A DNA stretch of 25,161 nt from a virus. Position numbers and translations under genes: made by a program. The notes under the pieces were generated by a model. That model did no database searches. It saw nothing but the letters and a program-made list of their open reading frames with translations, and was not told the origin of the DNA. The first letter of the stretch is position 1; the number at the start of each line of letters is the position of its first letter. Below are positions 4 through 24,965 of this stretch, piece after piece. The DNA lies in UHGV virus genome UHGV-1407879. The stretch is one strand, 5' to 3'.

Positions 4-369
4 ATGACAATGGATTATTCACAGTTAAGTGATTTTGAAATTAACGTGGCGGTATTCGAAGCCATTCATAACGGATCACCGGATTACAAAGAAGGTGAGA
101 ATGGCGATATGGTGTTTGTCTCATTTGAGGGAGACGTTGTAAACGGAGACGCAGTTGAAGTAGAAGTTGAGCGCGGATCCTTTAACCCATGCGCAAACCC
201 AGCAGACGCATGGCCGATTATTGAAAAATACAGGATTAGCATTATCAATCTCGATGAAGACGAGTGGGGTGCACGCGGTGTGGCCTACTGTAAATCTAAG
301 CGAGCTATACATGAAAATCCCCTCCGCGCCGCCATGATTGTCTTTCTCATGATGCAGAGAATCCAATAA
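4..369 (+). CDS. Hypothetical nin-region protein (121 aa); N-terminus may lie upstream of the window
   Basis: Long ORF directly upstream of ninF, same strand, in the slot where lambda carries ninE; no recognisable motif. Sequence upstream of the start is not visible. Confidence 0.45.
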   Translation: MTMDYSQLSDFEINVAVFEAIHNGSPDYKEGENGDMVFVSFEGDVVNGDAVEVEVERGSFNPCANPADAWPIIEKYRISIINLDEDEWGARGVAYCKSKRAIHENPLRAAMIVFLMMQRIQ

Positions 370-545
370 TGCTTAGCCCATCCCAATCCCTTCAATACCA
401 GAAAGAAAGCGTCGAGCGGGCTTTAACGTGCGCTAACTGCGGCCAGAAGCTGCATGTGCTGGAAGTTCACGTGTGTGAGCACTGCTGCGCAGAACTGATG
501 AGCGATCCGAATAGCTCAATGTACGAGGAAGAAGACGATGGCTAA
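369..545 (+). CDS. ninF: NinF-like small Cys-rich protein (58 aa)
   Basis: Not in the ORF track (under 60 aa). Manual translation from ATG 369 gives [40 protein letters not shown]..., matching lambda NinF from memory; stop overlaps the ninG start. Confidence 0.7.
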
Positions 546-1149
546 ACCAGCGCGAAGACGATGTAAAAACGATGAATGTCGGGAATGGTTTCACCCTGCA
601 TTCGCTAATCAGTGGTGGTGCTCTCCAGAGTGTGGAACCAAGATAGCACTCGAACGACGAAGTAAAGAACGCGAAAAAGCGGAAAAAGCAGCAGAGAAGA
701 AACGAAGACGAGAGGAGCAGAAACAGAAAGATAAACTTAAGATTCGAAAACTCGCCTTAAAGCCCCGCAGTTACTGGATTAAACAAGCCCAACAAGCCGT
801 AAACGCTTTCATCAGAGAAAGAGACCGCGACTTACCATGTATCTCGTGCGGAACGCTCACGTCTGCTCAGTGGGATGCCGGACATTACCGGACAACTGCT
901 GCGGCACCTCAACTCCGATTTGATGAACGCAATATTCACAAGCAATGCGTGGTGTGCAACCAGCACAAAAGCGGAAATCTCGTTCCGTATCGCGTCGAAC
1001 TGATTAGCCGCATCGGGCAGGAAGCAGTAGACGAAATCGAATCAAACCATAGCCGCCATCGTTGGACTGTCGAAGAGTGCATGGCCATCAAGGCGGAGTA
1101 TCAGAAGAAACTCAAAGACCTGCGAAATAGCAGAAGTGAGGCCGCATGA
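538..1149 (+). CDS. ninG: NinG (Rap) recombination-promoting protein
   Basis: 203 aa; Cys-rich N-terminus ([12 protein letters not shown]...CSPEC), basic KR/E-rich linker, conserved CISCG...[14 protein letters not shown] core; synteny ninF-ninG-ninH-ninI-Q as in lambda. Confidence 0.9.
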
Positions 1150-15002: not shown

Positions 15003-15695
15003 ATGTTATATGCATTTAAGCTGGGCAGAAAACTGCGCGGCGAGGAACCTTATTGCCCTGAAAAGGGTGGGAAAGGTGGCAGTTCTGATAAAAGCGCAAA
15101 GTATGCAGCAGAAGCTCAGAAGTATGCCGCAGACCTGCAAAATCAGCAGTTCAACACCATCATGAATAACCTGAAGCCGTTTACTCCTCTGGCTGAGAAG
15201 TATGTCGGCAGCCTCGAGAACTTATCGTCTCTGGAGGGGCAAGGTCAGGCACTTAACCAGTATTACAACTCTCAGCAGTATAAAGACCTTGCAGGTCAGG
15301 CTCGCTATCAGAGTCTGGCGGCAGCGGAAGCAACAGGTGGATTGGGTTCCACCGCAACCAGTAATCAGTTAGCAACAATCGCACCAACGCTTGGTCAGCA
15401 ATGGCTATCTGGACAAATGAACAATTACAACAACCTGGCAAATATCGGTCTTGGCGCTCTTCAGGGGCAGGCAAACGCCGGGCAAACATATGCCAACAAC
15501 ATGAGCCAGATTTCACAGCAAAGCGCGGCGCTGGCGGCTGCAAACGCCAACCGACCGTCAGCATTGCAGCAGGGTGTTAGTGGTGCTGCATCCGGTGCGC
15601 TTTTGGGTGGTGGCATAGCCAGTGCTCTCGAGCTATCAACTCCGTGGGGTGCTGGTATCGGTGCTGGTCTTGGTCTGCTTGGCTCGTTGTTTTAA
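15003..15695 (+). CDS. Ejection protein (P22 gp7-like)
   Basis: 230 aa; Q/N/A-rich with glycine-rich hydrophobic C-terminus; position and N-terminus (MLYAFKLGRKLRGEEPY) consistent with P22 gp7. Confidence 0.85.
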   Translation: MLYAFKLGRKLRGEEPYCPEKGGKGGSSDKSAKYAAEAQKYAADLQNQQFNTIMNNLKPFTPLAEKYVGSLENLSSLEGQGQALNQYYNSQQYKDLAGQARYQSLAAAEATGGLGSTATSNQLATIAPTLGQQWLSGQMNNYNNLANIGLGALQGQANAGQTYANNMSQISQQSAALAAANANRPSALQQGVSGAASGALLGGGIASALELSTPWGAGIGAGLGLLGSLF

Positions 15696-15705
15696 GGGGT
15701 AATCA

Positions 15706-17037
15706 ATGGCTACGTGGCAACAGGGTATTAATTCTGGTGGTTTTCTGGCTGGCATTGGTGCGCAAAACGAGAATGCGCCAAAGGCAAGCGACATTAACGC
15801 AACGCTTGGTCTGATCCGCGAAAACAATGAACTGGCTCGCTCAGGTGCAAATAACGTTGGTCTGACCGCGTTACGTGGTCTGGCTGGAGTTGCTGATATT
15901 TATAAGCAGGAACAGCAACAGAAAGCGATTAGTGCGTTCAATAAGGTTCACGCTGATGCATGGGCTTCTGGTGATCCATCGGGACTATTTAAGTTTGCCC
16001 AGGAAAATCCAGCGTTTGTTGCACAGGCACAACAGGCGTTTTCCGGTCTTAATGAGCAGCAACGCAACGATATGGGCGATTTAGCCATGAGGGCTAACGT
16101 CGCTCTTTCTCAGGGACCGGAAGCCTACAGTAAATTCATTACTGACAACAAGGACAGGTTAAATCGCGTGGGTGCGAATGCTGACTGGATGATTCAGACA
16201 GGTATCCAGAATCCAGAGCAGCTATCACACATGCTGACTACTATGACGCTAGGGGCTGTTGGTCCGGATAAAATGCTGGATTATCAGGATAAGATGGTTG
16301 GTCGCCAACTAGAGAAAGGGCGATTGGATGAAAGCATCCGTCAGGCTGATATGGAGAATGCGAGAGGATGGGCAAATATCCAGAACGCTCAACTAGACAG
16401 GGCTCAGCGGGCACAAATGCATAATGATAACGTAGCCCTGAAGTTGCAGGAATTAGGGATGAAACAACAGGAAAGCGGAAAGATTGACCCAAAACTTGTT
16501 CGAGATCTGAATAGTGATATTAATGGGTTCTCAAAGAATTATTCTGCAATGCGCAGTGCTTCTGACAACCTACAAGCCCTTGGGAAGCGCAACACTCCAG
16601 CAGCGCAGTTGGGAATGATTTTCAACTATATGAAATCGCTGGATCCGCAATCTGTGGTACGCGAAGGTGAGCAAGTGCAGGTAAAACGCACTGATGGAAT
16701 ATTCGGCACACTTGGTAACTATGTTAGCCAATTATCTAACGGCAAGATGCTGAATAATGAGCAAGTCCAGGACTTAATCAATACCTCAAAACTGATGGCA
16801 AATACTGAAGGCGAAAAGTTTAACCAGCAAATGGATGATTATCTTTCAACTTATGGAGATTCTCTCCCCAGCGGACTAACTAAGCAATTGCAATCCAGAA
16901 AAGCCAAGCTGTATGAAGATATTCAGCAGCCTGCGCAACAACAGAGCAATAACCAACAACCGACAAATACCCAACAGCAGCAGAGTCAATCCGGATCATA
17001 TACCTCAAAATCAGGCATTCAATTTACGGTGGAATGA
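15706..17037 (+). CDS. Ejection protein (P22 gp20-like)
   Basis: 443 aa; synteny between gp7 and gp16; Q-rich C-terminus. Confidence 0.8.
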
Positions 17038-19160
17038 TGAAAGTAACTGCAAACGGAAAGACATTTACCTTCCCTGATGGTACGAGCACGGAAGATATTG
17101 GCACCGCCATTGATGAGTATTTTACTGGTCAGGCTGTTCAGCAACAAACAGTTAATCAGGCCAATAATGAACCAGCACGTGAAGAACCATCATTGATGCA
17201 ACAAGCTGGCGATTGGCTCACTGGTGGTCAAAGTGCAGGGCAAATTGCAGAACAGGCTGGTCGTGGTCTGGTAAACATACCATTTGATGTATTGCAGGGT
17301 GGCGCAAGTCTGATTAATGCAATCAGCCAGGGGCTTGGTGGGCCAAAAGTATTGGATGATGTTTATCGTCCAGTCGATCGACCGACAGACCCTTACGCGC
17401 AAGCCGGTGAAACAATTGGTGGGGATCTCCTGCCAATTGGCACAGCGGCAAAAGCTGCTGGAGCGCCAGCAAAGCTCGCTGGAGATATCGGTTCCGCAGG
17501 AAACATGATTGCAGGTTCTCTTGCTGATGCTGCAAATCAGGAGGGCGATTTTGCACAAAATGCTGCCATTAACGGTGGTATCAATATTGGTGCTCAAGGC
17601 GTTCTTTCAGGTGTCGGGCGCGTTATTGCGCCAAGGGTTTCACAGGCTCTTGGTGGTGCAGCACTGAATTCTGCTAATGATGTTTCTAGGATGGCAAAGT
17701 CAGGTGCTGGGCGTCAGTCAATTGCCAGTCAGGCCGCTAATGTGTCCGAAGATGTAGCAAAAGCGGCTGAGTCTGCTGGAATTGATATAAACGCATTAAC
17801 ACCAGGAATGCGATCTGGAAGTCGTGGAATTGCACAAGCCGAAGGCGCATTGGCATCAACACCTGGAATTGTTCAGGACGCCCATCAGGCAGCATTTAAC
17901 GAAATATCATCAAAGTTAAGTCGAAACCTTGATGAATTTGGGGCCACATCTGGAACGGCATCAGAAAAAAGTGCGGCTATAAAACAAAGGATTCTTCAAA
18001 ATCTTGATCAGATGAAGGATGCCGAGCGCGCGGCATGGGATGACGTGCGGTCAACAATGCCAAATCAAAAAGCAAGAATGCTAAATGGTAATGCCGTTAT
18101 TCAGGCAGAGCGATCTGCTGGCATACCGCTTACTCCTGAAATGAAACAGTTTGTTCAGGCAAACAATCAAGGTGGAGTAACATTTGATGGCATGAAAGCA
18201 TGGAGAGCGAAATTTGCTGATGCGGAGCAAAAATATAAGCGTAGCGGAGAGGCAAATGCGGCAAGGAGAGCAGGGGAAATACGCCGGGCAATTACTGATG
18301 ATATGCGCACAATGGCGGAAAACGGCGGATTTCTTGATGACTGGCAGAAAGCTAATGATCTGTCTAAAGCGAGGTTATCAGCACAAGAGAGTGCAGAGTC
18401 TGTTTTCGGGCGTGATTTGGCAACAGATGCACTGATTACGAATGGAGTAAAATCCCTTCAATCATCGTCAGCTAAAGGTCTTAATGGTCCTGCTGGATTC
18501 CATTCTATGATCCGCGCGCTGCCAGAATCAGAGCGTGTTCCTGCTATATCATCAATGTTGCAAGATGCTATCTCGCATGGTGTACGTGGTGGCAAAGCTG
18601 ATGCAGCAGGAATTAACCATATCGCAGAGATACTGACTCCACAAAATGTAAAAGCCATTAGCCGATATTCCTCAGAGCTTGGAAGAATTGCTGATGCATA
18701 TGGCACTCTTGCAAGAGCAGCAGTGAAACCTCAGCAGTATATTGAAAGAACAGGTAGAACTGCCAATGTACTACGCGATCTGGATGCTGGTTTATCCAAC
18801 GTCACATCAACAGTGTTAAATGCAATTGCCAATTCAACATCAGGTGCCATTGTTGGTGGCGCTGGAGGAGGCATTGCAGGCGCTGCCGCAGGTGCTTTAG
18901 TTGGCGCTGGGTTAAAAGGCGCTGTATCTAAAATTGCCACCACACGTAGTGGTCGGTATGCGATAGAGAAAGCGGTTCAGGAAGCAACTAAAGCAGTAAG
19001 AGCAGGCGGAAGCAAAGAAGCATTAGCGGCGGCGGAACGCAGATTTATGGCAAATAAGGCCGCCGTAAAAGCAATACGCGAGGCACTAGGAAACGAAGAG
19101 TTCCAGCGTTTAGCAAGGGCTGGAATTGTGGCATCGCTAAGCGGAATGGCACAGGAGTAA
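17034..19160 (+). CDS. Ejection protein (P22 gp16-like), extended
   Basis: 708 aa; last gene of the ejection-protein trio; Gly/Ala-rich segments ([21 protein letters not shown]); ATGA overlap with gp20. Confidence 0.8.
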
Positions 19161-19490
19161 TTAGTCATCCATGGATGGATTGAGCTTATCTCGTGTTGAT
19201 GTGGCAATTTTACCAACATTTTTCAACCAAGATTTTAAGAAGGATATGTCGTCCTTAATATCATGAATATCCTCATTCTTTATACGATCAACCTTATCCT
19301 CTAGGCTCTCTATAGAACGCTCAATGCTAGACAGAGAGATTTTTAAGTCTCCTTGCTCACGTTCCAGTGAGGATTTGAGAGCACAATATTCGTTTTCTAG
19401 AATTCCTATTTTTTTTGTTAGAGAGTGCATTCGATACTCATACACCAAACTAGAAACGACTAATGCAGCCAACAGAAACCATTCAAGCAC
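19161..19490 (-). CDS. Small membrane-anchored coiled-coil protein (109 aa), unknown function
   Basis: GTG start preceded by AAGGAGG with about 5-nt spacing; N-terminal TM helix (LEWFLLAALVVSSLVY) then heptad-rich acidic domain; AT-rich codon usage by eye. Confidence 0.6.
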   Translation of the reverse strand: MLEWFLLAALVVSSLVYEYRMHSLTKKIGILENEYCALKSSLEREQGDLKISLSSIERSIESLEDKVDRIKNEDIHDIKDDISFLKSWLKNVGKIATSTRDKLNPSMDD

Positions 19491-19572: not shown

Positions 19573-19608
19573 ACGTGCATATTTAAATATTGCACGTTAC
19601 AACGTGCA
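19573..19608. promoter_or_regulatory. Operator-like triple half-site ACGTGCA / TGCACGT / ACGTGCA in divergent promoter region
   Basis: ACGTGCA (19573-19579), 11-bp AT spacer TATTTAAATAT, TGCACGT (19591-19597), TACA, ACGTGCA (19602-19608); a TTGCAA -35-like hexamer lies at 19564-19569. Confidence 0.5.
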
Positions 19609-19643
19609 TGTGTATGATTGACTTATCAATCACAACACGAGAT

Positions 19644-20657
19644 ATGCTCATGAAAAATGATGATGTTAGTGGGAAGGCCAAAGGCGGTAAGGCACGCGCG
19701 GCAAAAATGACAGCAGAGCAAAGAAAAGAATCCTCAAGAAAGGCTGTTGCCGCAAAAAAAGAAAAAGCTTTATTGCCCGTATCTGCGAATGAGGGAAAGT
19801 TAAAGATCGGTGATGCGGAATTAGATGTCGCGGTTCTCGAAAATGGACGGCGTATCATATCACAAGCTTCTGTTTTTAAAGCATTTGGCCGACCACAAAG
19901 AGGGGGTAGAGCACCTCAAGAAGAGGGTGTGATCAATATGCCCGCTTTTATGGATGCTGCAAACCTTAAAAAATATATAAATCAAGATGTTATGGATGTG
20001 ATCAATAAGGTCAAATACAAGACGATTACTGGCTCCGTCCAGGAAGGTTATGACGCATCCATAATACCTCTTGTCTGCGATGTTTATTTAAAGGCAAGAG
20101 AGGCAGGCGCTATCACCAGGCCAAACCAGTTAGAGACAGCCAAGAAAGCTGAAATTCTGGTGCGCTCATTAGCTAAAGTCGGAATAATAGCGCTTGTTGA
20201 TGAAGCGACGGGGTACCAGCGAGATAGAGAAAAAGATGCACTCGCCAAAATACTCGAGGCCTTTGTCGCAAAGGAAATTCAACCTTATATTACAACATTT
20301 CCTGCTGATTATTATGAAGAGCTTTTCAGGTTAAGGGGCTTAGAATCCCCGCCGGAAAATCCCCGCTTCCGGCCTCAGTATTTTGGCGTTTTGACAAATG
20401 ATATCGTCTACAAGAGATTGGCACCAAACATCCTTGAGGAGCTTAAAAAGCAGAACGTAAAGGCCTCAAAAGGTACAAAGTTGTTTCAGGGGCTGACGCC
20501 AAATATTGGATATCAAAAATTAAGAGAGCATCTGTCATCAACCGTTACGATTATGAAGCTATCTAACGATTATTCAGATTTTATTGCAAAAATGAATCGC
20601 CTGCATCCAAGGTTTGAGGATGTGAAAACAGACGAACTGGATGATTCAGACAAGTAA
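19644..20657 (+). CDS. Hypothetical protein with lysine-rich basic N-terminus (338 aa from ATG 19644; ORF open from 19590)
   Basis: Long ORF with own promoter/operator upstream and terminator downstream. The track start at 19590 is a TTG inside the operator; ATGs at 19608, 19614, 19644 and 19650 are alternative starts. Basic low-complexity N-terminal tail (SGKAKGGKARAAKMTAEQRKESSRKAVAAKKEK) then globular domain. Confidence 0.6.
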   Translation: MLMKNDDVSGKAKGGKARAAKMTAEQRKESSRKAVAAKKEKALLPVSANEGKLKIGDAELDVAVLENGRRIISQASVFKAFGRPQRGGRAPQEEGVINMPAFMDAANLKKYINQDVMDVINKVKYKTITGSVQEGYDASIIPLVCDVYLKAREAGAITRPNQLETAKKAEILVRSLAKVGIIALVDEATGYQRDREKDALAKILEAFVAKEIQPYITTFPADYYEELFRLRGLESPPENPRFRPQYFGVLTNDIVYKRLAPNILEELKKQNVKASKGTKLFQGLTPNIGYQKLREHLSSTVTIMKLSNDYSDFIAKMNRLHPRFEDVKTDELDDSDK

Positions 20658-20661
20658 CAGT

Positions 20662-20686
20662 AACCCACCTTCAGGTGGGTTTTTTG
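20662..20686. terminator. Bidirectional rho-independent terminator between convergent genes
   Basis: ACCCACC-TTCA-GGTGGGT hairpin followed by TTTTT on + strand; A-run on the other side; overlaps the last codons of mnt. Confidence 0.65.
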
Positions 20687-20922
20687 TACAAATCCTTCAG
20701 CGTATCAAACACCATCTTCTTAACAAGCTCTGACTGCTCATCAGCGAGTCGTTCTGCATCGTCGCGATAGCCTGCAATCGGTGATGGTTTTGATAGCGCA
20801 TCCTGAACGATTTGTAATAACTCTGAGTTCATTGACCTTCCGTTAGCCTCTGCTCTTAATTTCAATTTTTCTCTTACTTCCAAAGGCATACGGAAGTTAA
20901 AGTGCGGATCGTCTCTAGCCAT
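20671..20922 (-). CDS. mnt: Mnt repressor (ribbon-helix-helix)
   Basis: 83 aa, near-identical to P22 Mnt from memory (ARDDPHFNFRMP.EVREKLK.RAEANGRSMNSELLQIVQDALSKPSP...). Confidence 0.9.
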   Translation of the reverse strand: MARDDPHFNFRMPLEVREKLKLRAEANGRSMNSELLQIVQDALSKPSPIAGYRDDAERLADEQSELVKKMVFDTLKDLYKKPT

Positions 20923-20945
20923 GCCATCACTCCAAGTTAGTATCT

Positions 20946-21209
20946 CTAACTTTCGTCTTTATTGTTGCTATACATGCATTTCAACTTCTCAACATCATGT
21001 TCAAGATCTATCAATCGTGATGCTATAGTTGCAAGGTCTAGTGCTTGAATGTGTTTATTTTTTTCGGTCCATGCTTCAAGTGCCGCGACCATCTCAGCAT
21101 TTAATGAACGAGAATTAGCCTCAGCCAGTTCAATAAGACGTTCCTTTATCTCTACAGGAAGCCTCAGATTCACTTGAGGGTTTTTGTACTTACGATCAGA
21201 CATTGGCAC
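20946..21209 (-). CDS. Second Mnt/Arc-family ribbon-helix-helix regulator (87 aa)
   Basis: N-terminal RHH signature (NLRLPVEIKERLIELAEANSRSLNAEMVAAL) plus C-terminal helical extension as in Mnt; lies between mnt and the operator region. Confidence 0.7.
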   Translation of the reverse strand: MPMSDRKYKNPQVNLRLPVEIKERLIELAEANSRSLNAEMVAALEAWTEKNKHIQALDLATIASRLIDLEHDVEKLKCMYSNNKDES

Positions 21210-21249
21210 ATCCTGAATAATTTTTTACCACAGGATATGTAGGTATCTA

Positions 21250-21278
21250 TTGACTATCAATGCGTACCTAAATACTAT
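21250..21278 (+). promoter_or_regulatory. Pant-like promoter with overlapping operator repeats
   Basis: -35 TTGACT (21250-21255), 17-bp spacer, -10 TACTAT (21273-21278); palindrome ATTGA-CTA-TCAAT (21249-21261); direct repeats ATGCGTACC at 21260-21268 and 21281-21289. Confidence 0.55.
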
Positions 21279-21308
21279 GTATGCGTACCACATACAACGG
21301 AGGATGCA

Positions 21309-21449
21309 ATGAAGGTAAAAACACTGCGTATGCCAGAGAAGTTAGAAAAAATCCTTGAAGAGAAAGCAAAGGAAGAGTGTCGCTCATTTAGTGCAGAAGT
21401 AATTAAACGGGTGATGGACAGCCTGAAGAGAGAGGGGATAACGGTATGA
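21309..21449 (+). CDS. arc: Arc-like ribbon-helix-helix repressor (46 aa)
   Basis: Not in the ORF track (under 60 aa). GGAGG 6 nt upstream of ATG 21309; translation MKVKTLRMPEKLEKILEEKAKEECRSFSAEVIKRVMDSLKREGITV aligns with the P22 Arc strand-helix-helix pattern (FNLRWPREVLDLVRKVAEENGRSVNSEIYQRVMESFKKEG). Confidence 0.7.
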   Translation: MKVKTLRMPEKLEKILEEKAKEECRSFSAEVIKRVMDSLKREGITV

Positions 21450-21649
21450 GTAAAGAATGTTGTTTCTGCGGCATTAGCGAATCAGACGCTGATCAAACAT
21501 ACATTTACTCTAAAGAAACAGGTCGGATGCTGTGTAGTGACTGCGTGTTGGACATCATAAGATACAAGCATCTTGGATGTTCTGCCAGCATTAGCAATAT
21601 AGGTGAAGTATATGAAGGGAAAGATATAACTGATAGAGCAGAAAGTTGA
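21446..21649 (+). CDS. Small Cys-rich protein (67 aa), putative zinc-ribbon
   Basis: ATGA overlap with the arc stop (translational coupling); cysteine pattern CCFC...CSDC...C. Confidence 0.5.
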   Translation: MSKECCFCGISESDADQTYIYSKETGRMLCSDCVLDIIRYKHLGCSASISNIGEVYEGKDITDRAES

Positions 21650-21712
21650 AGCCCCAACTGCGGTAACAGTCAGGGCTTCGGTATCGTAAAACCACGCATA
21701 GGAATTAACGAC

Positions 21713-22636
21713 ATGAAAAGTATAGCAACAGCAGTATCTACTATCAATGTACCATTCCACGGCGCAGAGCTTTATGTTGTTAATCACAACGGTGAGCCGT
21801 ACACCCCAATGAAACCTATCGTTGAGGGAATGGGTATGGATTGGGCTTCACAGTTTACAAAGTTAAAACAAAGATTTGCTAAAGGTATTGTGGAAATCGC
21901 AATACCTTCAGTTGGCGGTGTGCAGAACATGATTTGCCTTGCTTTACGTAAACTGAATGGCTGGTTGCAAACCATCAGCCCTAACAAAGTCCGCCCTGAA
22001 ATCCGCGACAATGTAATCCAGTATCAAGAAGAGTGTGACGATGTGCTATACGAGTACTGGACTAAAGGCCATGTAGTTAACCCACGCAAAGCTAAAAAGG
22101 CGTTGCCGGGTAAAATCACCACTGAACAGCAGGAAGCCATTAAACAACTCGTCATGAGTCGCGGTCAGTCTCTGCCAAAAGAAAAACAGGCTAAGGCGAT
22201 GATCACCATGTGGTCGTCACTAAAATCCCATTTTGGATGTTCGTACAAAGAAATCAGTGAGGAGCAGTTTACCGAAGCACTATCACTTGCAGCTCGAGTT
22301 CCACTTGAAGGTGAGTTCATTGGCAAACAAGAGAAGAAAACCAACGAGCTTTCTGCAAAAGAAGCAAACAGCCTTGTATGGTTATGGGATTATGCCAACC
22401 GCTCACAGGCATTATTCCGCGAACTGTATCCGGCATTAAAACAAATTCAATCGAACTATTCCGGCAGATGTCATGACTGCGGTTATGAGTTCTCCCGTAT
22501 TATCGATATAGCGAGAGACGTTTTAATCAATCACACACGAGATGTTGATATCAATGAGCCAGACGGACCAACGAATCTTTCCGCATGGATGAGACTTAAG
22601 AATAAAGAATTACCTCCTTCAGTACATAACTACTGA
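21713..22636 (+). CDS. ant: Antirepressor Ant-like protein
   Basis: 307 aa in the position of P22 ant (downstream of arc, upstream of tailspike); assignment by synteny and size, not by recalled sequence. Confidence 0.55.
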   Translation: MKSIATAVSTINVPFHGAELYVVNHNGEPYTPMKPIVEGMGMDWASQFTKLKQRFAKGIVEIAIPSVGGVQNMICLALRKLNGWLQTISPNKVRPEIRDNVIQYQEECDDVLYEYWTKGHVVNPRKAKKALPGKITTEQQEAIKQLVMSRGQSLPKEKQAKAMITMWSSLKSHFGCSYKEISEEQFTEALSLAARVPLEGEFIGKQEKKTNELSAKEANSLVWLWDYANRSQALFRELYPALKQIQSNYSGRCHDCGYEFSRIIDIARDVLINHTRDVDINEPDGPTNLSAWMRLKNKELPPSVHNY

Positions 22637-22814: not shown

Positions 22815-24965
22815 ATGACAGACATTACAGCCAATGTGATCGTATCGATGCCTTCGCAACTCTTCACTATGGCGCGTTCTTTTAAAGCCGTAGCCAATGG
22901 CAAAATTTATATCGGTAAAATTGACACTGATCCTGTAAATACAGAAAACCAGATTCAGGTCTATGTGGAGAATGAAGACGGTTCTCACGTTCCTGTTTCG
23001 CAACCAATAATCATTAACGCTGCTGGATATCCGGTATATAACGGACAGATTGCCAAATTCGTTACCGTGCAAGGCCATTCTATGGCTGTTTATGATGCGT
23101 ATGGTGCGCAGCAGTTCTATTTTCCTAATGTGCTGAAGTATGACCCTGATCAACTACGGCAGCAATTAGAAGACCCGGATGGAGCTAAAAAATATCCTGA
23201 ATTGCAGATATCTCGGTGGAGGGACGATTGTGATGTAAGAGGGTGGGGGGCAAAAGGCGATGGTATAACAGATGATACATCTGCATTGATCTTGGCTGCA
23301 GAATATGCACGAGAATCATCCAAAACATTACGAGCGGAAGGTAATTTTATTATTACGGAGACATTAAATCTTCGTAATGTCAGCCTCGAAATGACCAATG
23401 CTGTTTTTACCATATCCCACTCAGGAATAGGGGTATTGCTTGGCGGGAATGCATCAAACCCTAACAACCCAAGACAAAACTTCGGAACGATTATCAGAAA
23501 TTCTGGTATTTCATCTGAAACGACACCGGATATTCGTATTATTGGGGCAAAAGGGCAGCATATAAACATTGAGCGTTGCGACTACTTACAGTTATATGCA
23601 AATTATAATGCTTCGGTGGCATCGACGGATTATTCAATAGCATACTCAACCTTTAACCTGAAAAAGGTCGATACAATTCATTTTCTTGGAGTTGAGAACG
23701 GATGGATAAATGAAAACTATTTTTATCTGAATCGTACGAATAATATCATTTTCGCTGATAATCCATATCATCATAACCACAATAAGTTTTATGGTGGAAC
23801 TATGGAGGGGGCAGGTAAAATTGATATTCAAAGAGGTGATAACAATTACTTCTACGGGTTTCGTTTTGAACGATATCCATCATCCCCAACTAACCAACAG
23901 TTGATAATTAACTTTGGTGAATATACGTGGAATAACTCAATTGAGGCTTCATGGTTAAGTTCTCCTTACTATACAAATGAACCATACAATCCATCACCTT
24001 ACACTTATGTAGAGGTAACTGATAATGGCAAGGGGAATGCAGTATTTCATGTTCAGGAAAATATATCCGATGAAGTAACATTGTTTTCTTTAAATGCTAA
24101 CACCCCATTTATATCCAGTGCCAACAATGGAGAAGTTGGTGCATTAGCATATCAAACAGATGTAGATGGTTTATATAATATCCGTCACCTAGTTTCTTCT
24201 AAGTTTGCTTTTATGCGGAATTTTGGGTTGTTATGGGAATCTGGAGATGTACCAGTAAGAAATGGTGATATGTTTACATTCTCAGCAGATACGGCATCGT
24301 TTCGCATTTACCTGTATGCATTAGATGGAGATGGGAATGTCATAACTTCACAAACAGAAGCAATAACTTCTTCTATGCAATGGGATTCATCTAACCATAG
24401 ATATGCTACTGTTGCTAACATTTCTTCCATTAAGATCAGGATTAATAATGAAGGGGTTCCAGTTAGTGCAATTCGTTTAGCTGTGTATTCTGGTGGTAAT
24501 GTAGCGAATACTGCATTTTCATGGCTATGCTTAACTGGTAGATATTACAAAAATAGCACATCCTTGCCAAGGAAAAGCAAAGATAACTTCACCTTAAAAC
24601 AAGGAAAAGCAATTACTTATTATAGTGATACTGATATTAGTATGGCTAACATTGGTTCAGGAATTACCTGTTATAAAACCGATTTATCTGAAATCAAAAT
24701 TAATCTTGTAAGGGGCAGGTATGTAGTGAAATCAATTTCAGGCAGTGAAATATATGTATACCAAGGAACAGTCACTTATTACCCTCCATTCAGTGATGTC
24801 AAATTGGTATATACGGATGGGGTTGAAAATAAATTATTAGATGTGCAAAACATCTCTTCAGGAAAGATTACTCTTGCAGATACAGTACCATCAGCTATAT
24901 CTGCAGGTGATTTTGTAGATGTTATTGTTACGAAGACGAAGTCTATTTTATCCAGTGCGCCGTAA
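22815..24965 (+). CDS. Tailspike protein: P22 gp9-like head-binding N-domain fused to a divergent receptor-binding domain
   Basis: 716 aa; N-terminal ~115 aa closely matches P22 tailspike from memory ([11 protein letters not shown]...[21 protein letters not shown]...VLKYDPDQ). The remainder is unrelated, visibly AT-rich, with a pectate-lyase-fold-like motif ([14 protein letters not shown]). Confidence 0.9.

Follow-up and report, generated by a model that had tools for sequence, protein, structure and literature searches.

A gene 16 homologue in a 25,161-nucleotide stretch of the virus genome UHGV-1407879 (below "the window", meaning the whole stretch) encodes a protein of 708 amino acids (aa), almost certainly a gp16-type ejection protein of a Lederbergvirus (P22-like) phage or prophage of E. 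coli and an allele of the epsilon34 gp13 and CUS-3 proteins. It is a common, previously described allele of an already known protein; 708 aa is the normal length for this allele type and no new insertion is present. The differences between the window protein and P22 gp16 stem from the mosaic make-up of gp16 genes, which combine an exchangeable head (aa 1–34/48), a near-universal core (aa 51–127), an all-alpha body of ~500 residues, a Gly/Ala segment and a tail.

Identity and length of the gp16 homologue

The full-length profile match, the gene order and an N-terminal core common with P22 gp16 place the protein in the gp16 family. PHROG 770 ('DNA transfer protein') covers aa 1–667 with positions 1–666 of its 668 (E 2.5e-231) and is also matched, as one stretch, by gp16 of P22, Sf6, HK620 and Sf101. 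The gene is the third of the ejection-protein cluster gp7-gp20-gp16 (15003–19160), the same place that gene 16 takes in P22, and the order gp14-gp7-gp20-gp16 is found in P22, epsilon34, HK620, CUS-3 and Sf6 alike. Pfam PF26808 is a precomputed label on near-identical copies of the window gp16 and on P22 gp16 itself; our scans with a local Pfam copy without the PF26808 model and with NCBIfam returned no family, and a PADLOC scan returned nothing. The first-pass annotation, made from the sequence alone, had called the product a gp16-like ejection protein, and this identification holds: no result contradicted it and the weak points touch the mechanism only. The gene starts with ATGATG preceded by GGTGG (context ggtggaATGATGa). 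Its first ATG overlaps the stop codon of the upstream gene 20 as ATGA, and the second ATG at 17037, which is equivalent to the P22 gene 16 start, would give 707 aa, the length of many NCBI-sourced proteins of this allele.

Within the family the protein belongs to the epsilon34/CUS-3 allele type, defined here by 95% or more identity across a body of ~660 residues in which the 43-residue Gly/Ala segment and the C-terminal tail are counted. Gp13 of Salmonella phage epsilon34 (YP_002533472) also has 708 aa and is 98.0% identical over 708/708 residues (96.6% at the DNA level), differing by 14 scattered substitutions and with DNA identity falling to 85% in the last 60 bases. It shares the gene neighbourhood including the abutting hkcB-like gene, although its neighbours are other alleles (gp7 67% identical, gp20 largely unrelated). 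Gp16 of the E. coli phage CUS-3 (719 aa) is 98.6% identical over aa 49–708, with an identical Gly/Ala segment, but has a different head (MAKAWKDV..., 59 residues versus 48 in the window); the C-terminal half of CUS-3 gp20 differs as well. Gp16 of HK620, likewise an E. coli phage (722 aa), is 73.6% identical and of the same architecture and length class, with a Gly-rich uncharged segment and the C-terminal tail. Epsilon34 gp13 is visible in virions, where its size on gels differs from that of the P22 protein, and its gene has been described as 'very similar' to that of CUS-3 (PMC2629481). A large protein database contains 2013 relatives at E ≤ 1e-5; among these the top 120 are 94–99% identical and 703–876 aa long. 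At least 80% of gene 16 was found in 111 of 5426 complete E. coli genomes.

Gene 16 of Salmonella phage P22 (NC_002371, 11484–13313) encodes 609 aa, 99 fewer than the window gene, and the two lengths given in the first-pass annotation (708 aa and, for P22, about 609 aa) are therefore both right. Among the homologues measured P22 gp16 is the shortest, followed by those of SE1 (638 aa), BTP1 (655), Sf6 (665), epsilon34 (708), CUS-3 (719), HK620 (722) and Sf101 (911), in agreement with a published review (PMC8954989) whose size table gives 719 aa for CUS-3, 722 for HK620 and 609 for P22, and which names P22 as the smallest. The proviso that P22 gp16 and its relatives might all be about 700 aa long turned out to be true for the relatives and wrong for P22, and the length of the window protein is no anomaly, as the nearest relatives have 708, 719 and 722 aa and others 638–911 aa. 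Because the C-terminal tail is kept in Sf101-type and metagenomic relatives, it is better to call the P22 type shortened than the window protein lengthened.

Relation to P22 gp16

The mosaic can be followed in DNA identity profiles computed in bins of 90 nucleotides (nt) along gene 16. Identity to epsilon34 is 85–100% throughout, while CUS-3 shows no relationship over the first ~150 nt and 87–100% identity from there on. HK620 reaches 92–98% at nt 181–630 and 92% in the last 150 nt with a diverged body (42–84%) in between, P22 62–80% at nt 1–360 and random level beyond, and Sf101 90–96% only at nt 91–360; N7/HZ41 match only nt 1–99. P22 gp16 has the same head and core, and in the core stretch only the DNA identity to P22, HK620, CUS-3, SE1 and Sf101 is 78–98%. 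The same body, at least 94% identical, carries four different N-terminal heads, one of them an SLT lytic transglycosylase. The SLT-headed proteins P0045 and P0047 (875–876 aa) have a gp16 body 95–98% identical to that of the window.

Past the core the relationship to P22 is much harder to see, as BLAST aligns P22 gp16 only to aa 2–207 (67% identity, E 8e-81). A search of 1.84 billion representative proteins with aa 208–708 gave 47 matches including full-length colinear relatives at 22–26% identity, a distant branch of body relatives to which gp13 of the Shigella phage Sf101 (L006:2362-5097) belongs. Sf101 gp13 and the metagenomic relatives (P0149–P0167; the SLT-domain protein C130_2) are 600–1080 aa long, are 22–30% identical in the body over its full length and share the C-terminal tail ending in G-h-h-x-x-L-S-G, but many of them have an N-terminal SLT head that is absent in the window gp16. 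With these sequences included, an HHalign comparison of the window/Sf101-type profile with a profile of P22, SE1, Sf6 and BTP1 linked the two bodies with a probability of 95.6% (E 1.1e-8, score 70.8), whereas reversed, column-shuffled and block-shuffled controls scored 13–22 (E 0.06–0.75). The link was gained only after adding the Sf101-type and metagenomic relatives; with shallow profiles (6 versus 4 sequences) the bodies were not linked (probability 5.6%). On the P22 side a homologue search with the P22/Sf6 profile added no depth to it, as all that it found were near-identical proteins of the P22 and Sf6 types. Judged from these profiles, the body is remotely homologous to that of the P22 type, from which it has diverged almost beyond recognition. 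The last third (aa 444–708 versus P22 407–609) stays at background, with a score of 19.9 versus 13–21 in the controls. We do not claim homology for this part; it is suggested by motifs in the same order as in P22 (TG, an uncharged segment, E[KR]A[VL][QN]xA[TA]xAVR) and by PHROG 770, which aligns the window protein and P22 gp16 end to end, P22 lacking about 53 internal profile positions plus the tail.

The alignment with P22 gp16 proposed in the first-pass annotation for locating an insertion was run and showed no single insertion. The 99-residue surplus is spread over four places, namely +16 at aa 136–151 (these residues are also in HK620 and CUS-3), +25 at aa ~213–240, −4 in the homologous centre and +62 in the C-terminal third, most of the last being due to the enlarged Gly/Ala segment and to a tail of ~41 residues. 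This distribution makes it very unlikely that the window encodes a P22-type gp16 with one discrete insertion of ~100 residues, an extra domain possibly evading an exclusion system. Such a protein would fit the length difference, the clearly P22-like first 207 residues and the presence of extra G/A-rich sequence, but there is no contiguous extra block, BLAST similarity to P22 does not resume past aa 207, PHROG 770 runs end to end through both proteins, and the CUS-3 proteins are fully excluded by SieA, so no escape is evident for the window allele. An annotation artefact in the form of an over-extended open reading frame (ORF), a wrong start or a gene fusion has a negligible probability as the source of the extra length, even though two ATG codons are adjacent at the start and one relative in the database, P0076 with its 862 aa, is the product of a gp20-gp16 fusion. 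An over-extended or fused ORF was rejected as the start ambiguity is a single residue, the N-terminus matches that of P22 gp16, the stop agrees with epsilon34, CUS-3 and HK620, and a larger protein is seen on gels of epsilon34 virions.

More can be said for a non-homologous replacement, in which the C-terminal ~500 residues would be an unrelated module fused to a conserved gp16 N-terminus: DNA identity to P22 is random after about nt 360, BLAST is blank after aa 207 and the last third is without significant profile similarity to the P22 type. We nevertheless regard it as improbable, because aa 242–443 are colinear with P22 aa 201–406 in the HHalign comparison with its clean controls, and because the remote-homology cluster PHROG 770 spans all types at full length with the common motifs in the same order. 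Mosaic divergence of a normal-length gp16 allele is therefore the reading that we follow.

An AlphaFold2 (AF2) model from a 43-sequence alignment reached a mean predicted local distance difference test (pLDDT) value of 67.5, with confidence varying along the chain as listed in Table 1. The head contains strands at residues 2–6 and 9–13 and a helix at 19–36. The region predicted to be disordered in the monomer contains aa 51–127, the segment most conserved across gp16 alleles, and this combination suggests a segment that may fold only on a partner such as gp20. Gp16 and gp20 have been reported to be needed as matched pairs. Foldseek matched the model to viral predicted structures (E 1e-12 to 1e-4), SLT-headed ones included. 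No solved structure was found to resemble the model, and a sequence search of the PDB gave only spurious matches to coronavirus spike HR1 constructs, so that the function is inferred from P22. Like T7 gp16, the window gp16 is encoded by the third gene, also the largest, in a cluster of three for ejection proteins, and T7 gp16 likewise has a proposed inner-membrane role and a predicted membrane-active segment near the C-terminus (PMC8954989). The window protein is about half its size, however, the local Pfam scan showed no PF01464 (lytic transglycosylase) or other domain in it, and no similarity in sequence or fold to the solved T7-type ejection protein structures was detected.

The Gly/Ala segment, the C-terminal tail and exclusion by SieA

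Gly/Ala-rich sequence near the C-terminus had been pointed out from the sequence and was confirmed by counting: the best 30-residue window within aa 592–640 contains 20 Gly plus Ala, compared with 29.4% in the whole protein, and only 16 of 5000 shuffles reach 20. Residues 592–640 are identical in the window, epsilon34 and CUS-3, and a second, smaller patch lies at aa 138–167. Nearly all relatives have an uncharged segment of small residues, 8–43 residues long, at the equivalent position; it reaches its greatest length in the window allele type, while the longest uncharged C-terminal stretch of P22 gp16 has only 16 residues. P22 gp16 also lacks the tail, as it reaches the end of the PHROG 770 profile at its own C-terminus whereas the profile ends at aa 667 of the window protein; the global HH alignment ends at aa 666. 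The tail is predicted to be helical (pLDDT 82–91), and it is conserved, together with G697, in Sf101-type and metagenomic relatives. Inference points to the Gly/Ala segment as the most promising candidate for inserting into a membrane or packing helices.

In P22, gp16 leaves the virion, shows membrane association in vitro and helps DNA to enter liposomes, and the periplasmic conduit is largely formed without it (PMC10883804), which places gp16 at the inner membrane. As known for P22, the window protein would be carried in the phage head and leave through the tail once gp7 and gp20 have done so; its action at the inner-membrane end of the conduit across the envelope would then let the DNA reach the cytoplasm. 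The Gly/Ala segment may insert into or pack within the membrane, and it lies in the region matching the sites of SieA escape in P22. Ejection proteins can indeed be targets of exclusion systems, as the first-pass annotation had remarked: P22 mutants escaping SieA carry gp16 G532W and P546S plus changes in gp20 (PMC10883804). G532 is conserved in P22, L, Sf6, HK620 and CUS-3 (Leavitt et al., PMC10883804), and its probable equivalent is Gly574, whose column is nearly invariant in the 43-sequence alignment. P546 aligns inside the Gly/Ala segment in the extended alignment, which in this C-terminal third has no statistical support of its own for either position.

A bolder proposal is that the Gly/Ala segment and the extra tail form an inner-membrane-contacting element whose sequence decides whether a SieA-type block stops DNA entry, and we hold this to be unlikely. 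Several points weaken the case for the Gly/Ala segment as a membrane element. The segment is of borderline hydrophobicity (Kyte-Doolittle 1.63), AF2 confidence is low at aa 587–626, and its equation with the P22 SieA-escape region is a motif-level alignment only. Function cannot be read from a fold that resembles no solved structure. Moreover, removal of aa 476–609 does not abolish the binding of P22 gp16 to membranes in vitro (Perez et al., cited in PMC10883804), and therefore the C-terminal hydrophobic segment is not the sole membrane determinant.

In a P22 hybrid, gp7/20/16 of CUS-3 support infection, and CUS-3 ejection proteins are fully excluded by two SieA types, while those of HK620 partly escape (PMC10883804). 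As the CUS-3 gp16 body is 98.6% identical to that of the window and fully excluded, the window allele is predicted to be SieA-sensitive, and its length would give no evident advantage. Leavitt et al. 2024 (PMC10883804) describe CUS-3 and HK620 gp16 as 'only 26% identical' and give this as the cause of the partial escape of HK620. BLASTP of the GenBank sequences (CUS-3, L004:2824-4983; HK620, L003:2824-4992) shows 77% identity over the full length, and the relevant differences must therefore be far fewer than that figure implies.

Neighbouring genes and use of the allele map

The window comprises the late region of a P22-like phage or prophage, and CUS-3 covers 68% of it at 94.7% identity. Directly upstream of gene 16 lie genes for DUF2824 (gp14), P22_gp7 and Inj_translocase, and downstream follow Mnt/Arc, Ant and a tailspike with head-binding domain; an hkcB/immI region and then the tailspike come after gp16 also in epsilon34, HK620 and CUS-3. 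All features are collected in Table 1.

Table 1. Features of the ejection-protein cluster and of the gp16 protein, with window positions and AF2 confidence where given.
Feature	Residues	Position	Strand	Remarks
Gene 7 homologue (ejection protein)	230 aa	15003..15695	+	Pfam P22_gp7, E 3e-132; 97.8% identical to CUS-3 gp7
Gene 20 homologue (ejection protein, periplasmic tube)	443 aa	15706..17037	+	Pfam Inj_translocase, E 2e-106
Gene 16 homologue (ejection/'DNA transfer' protein)	708 aa plus stop	17034..19160	+	ATG start; from the ORF list
N-terminal head	1–34	17034..17135	+	small beta-hairpin plus helix; exchangeable module; pLDDT ~84
Region predicted disordered in the monomer	35–207	17136..17654	+	pLDDT below 50
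Conserved core	51–127	17184..17414	+	near-identical in P22, HK620, CUS-3, SE1, Sf101
Ala/Gly-rich 16-residue insertion relative to P22 gp16	136–151	17439..17486	+	one 16-column gap in the profile alignment
Confident all-alpha body (AF2)	210–570			pLDDT 80–94
Central all-alpha body	242–443	17757..18362	+	remote colinear homologue of P22 gp16 aa 201–406
Gly574, 'ERTGR' motif	574	18753..18755	+	probable equivalent of P22 gp16 G532; extended HH alignment
Gly/Ala-rich uncharged segment (43 residues)	585–627	18786..18914	+	six GxxxG; Kyte-Doolittle maximum 1.63
Gly/Ala region of low confidence (AF2)	587–626			pLDDT below 50
C-terminal helices (AF2)	627–708			pLDDT 74–91
C-terminal tail	667–708	19032..19157	+	absent from P22/Sf6-type proteins; beyond the PHROG 770 profile end

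The gp20 protein is itself a composite, as its aa 1–406 are 99.8–100% identical to those of phages E212, EC.P3 and S.Kent 1-2-1 and then switch to a last stretch of ~32 residues resembling the P22, epsilon34 and BTP1 tails (65–69%). The adjoining gp16 head (aa 1–33) is of the P22/epsilon34 type, and from their sequences gp20 tail and gp16 head (within 15706–17135) look like a single recombination unit. On the other side of gene 16, an hkcB-like ORF of 109 aa on the minus strand (19161–19490) abuts the gene 16 stop with its own stop, with zero intergenic bases. It sits where P22 carries sieA, with a hydrophobic helix at the N-terminus and a coiled coil after it, and no family was found for it in Pfam, PADLOC or NCBIfam. 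The interval between gene 16 and the tailspike (19590–22636) differs from the immI of P22 and holds an ORF with a P63C domain (355 aa as listed from a TTG start), the Ant antirepressor, two divergently placed Arc/Mnt-family repressor genes (minus strand) and a Cys-rich ORF of 67 aa without family. In the tailspike (22815–24965) the P22-type head-binding domain is conserved (aa 1–113), and the remainder has a G+C content of 36–39% compared with about 48–50% in virion genes, consistent with a receptor-binding module swapped in recently.

As a discovery the gp16 of the window carries little weight, since it represents textbook mosaic variation in P22-like ejection proteins and an allele that has already been sequenced, seen in virions and used in hybrid phages. 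The by-product of the analysis is a residue-level map of the allele, with head, core, remotely homologous helical body, Gly/Ala segment and tail, which puts the P22 SieA-escape positions beside the Gly/Ala segment. If this segment and the tail did decide the SieA-type block, it would explain the exclusion of CUS-3/epsilon34-type gp16 alongside the partial escape of the HK620 variant, which has the same architecture. The map could also help in designing exchanges of segments between the CUS-3 type, which is SieA-sensitive, and the HK620 type, which is partly resistant.

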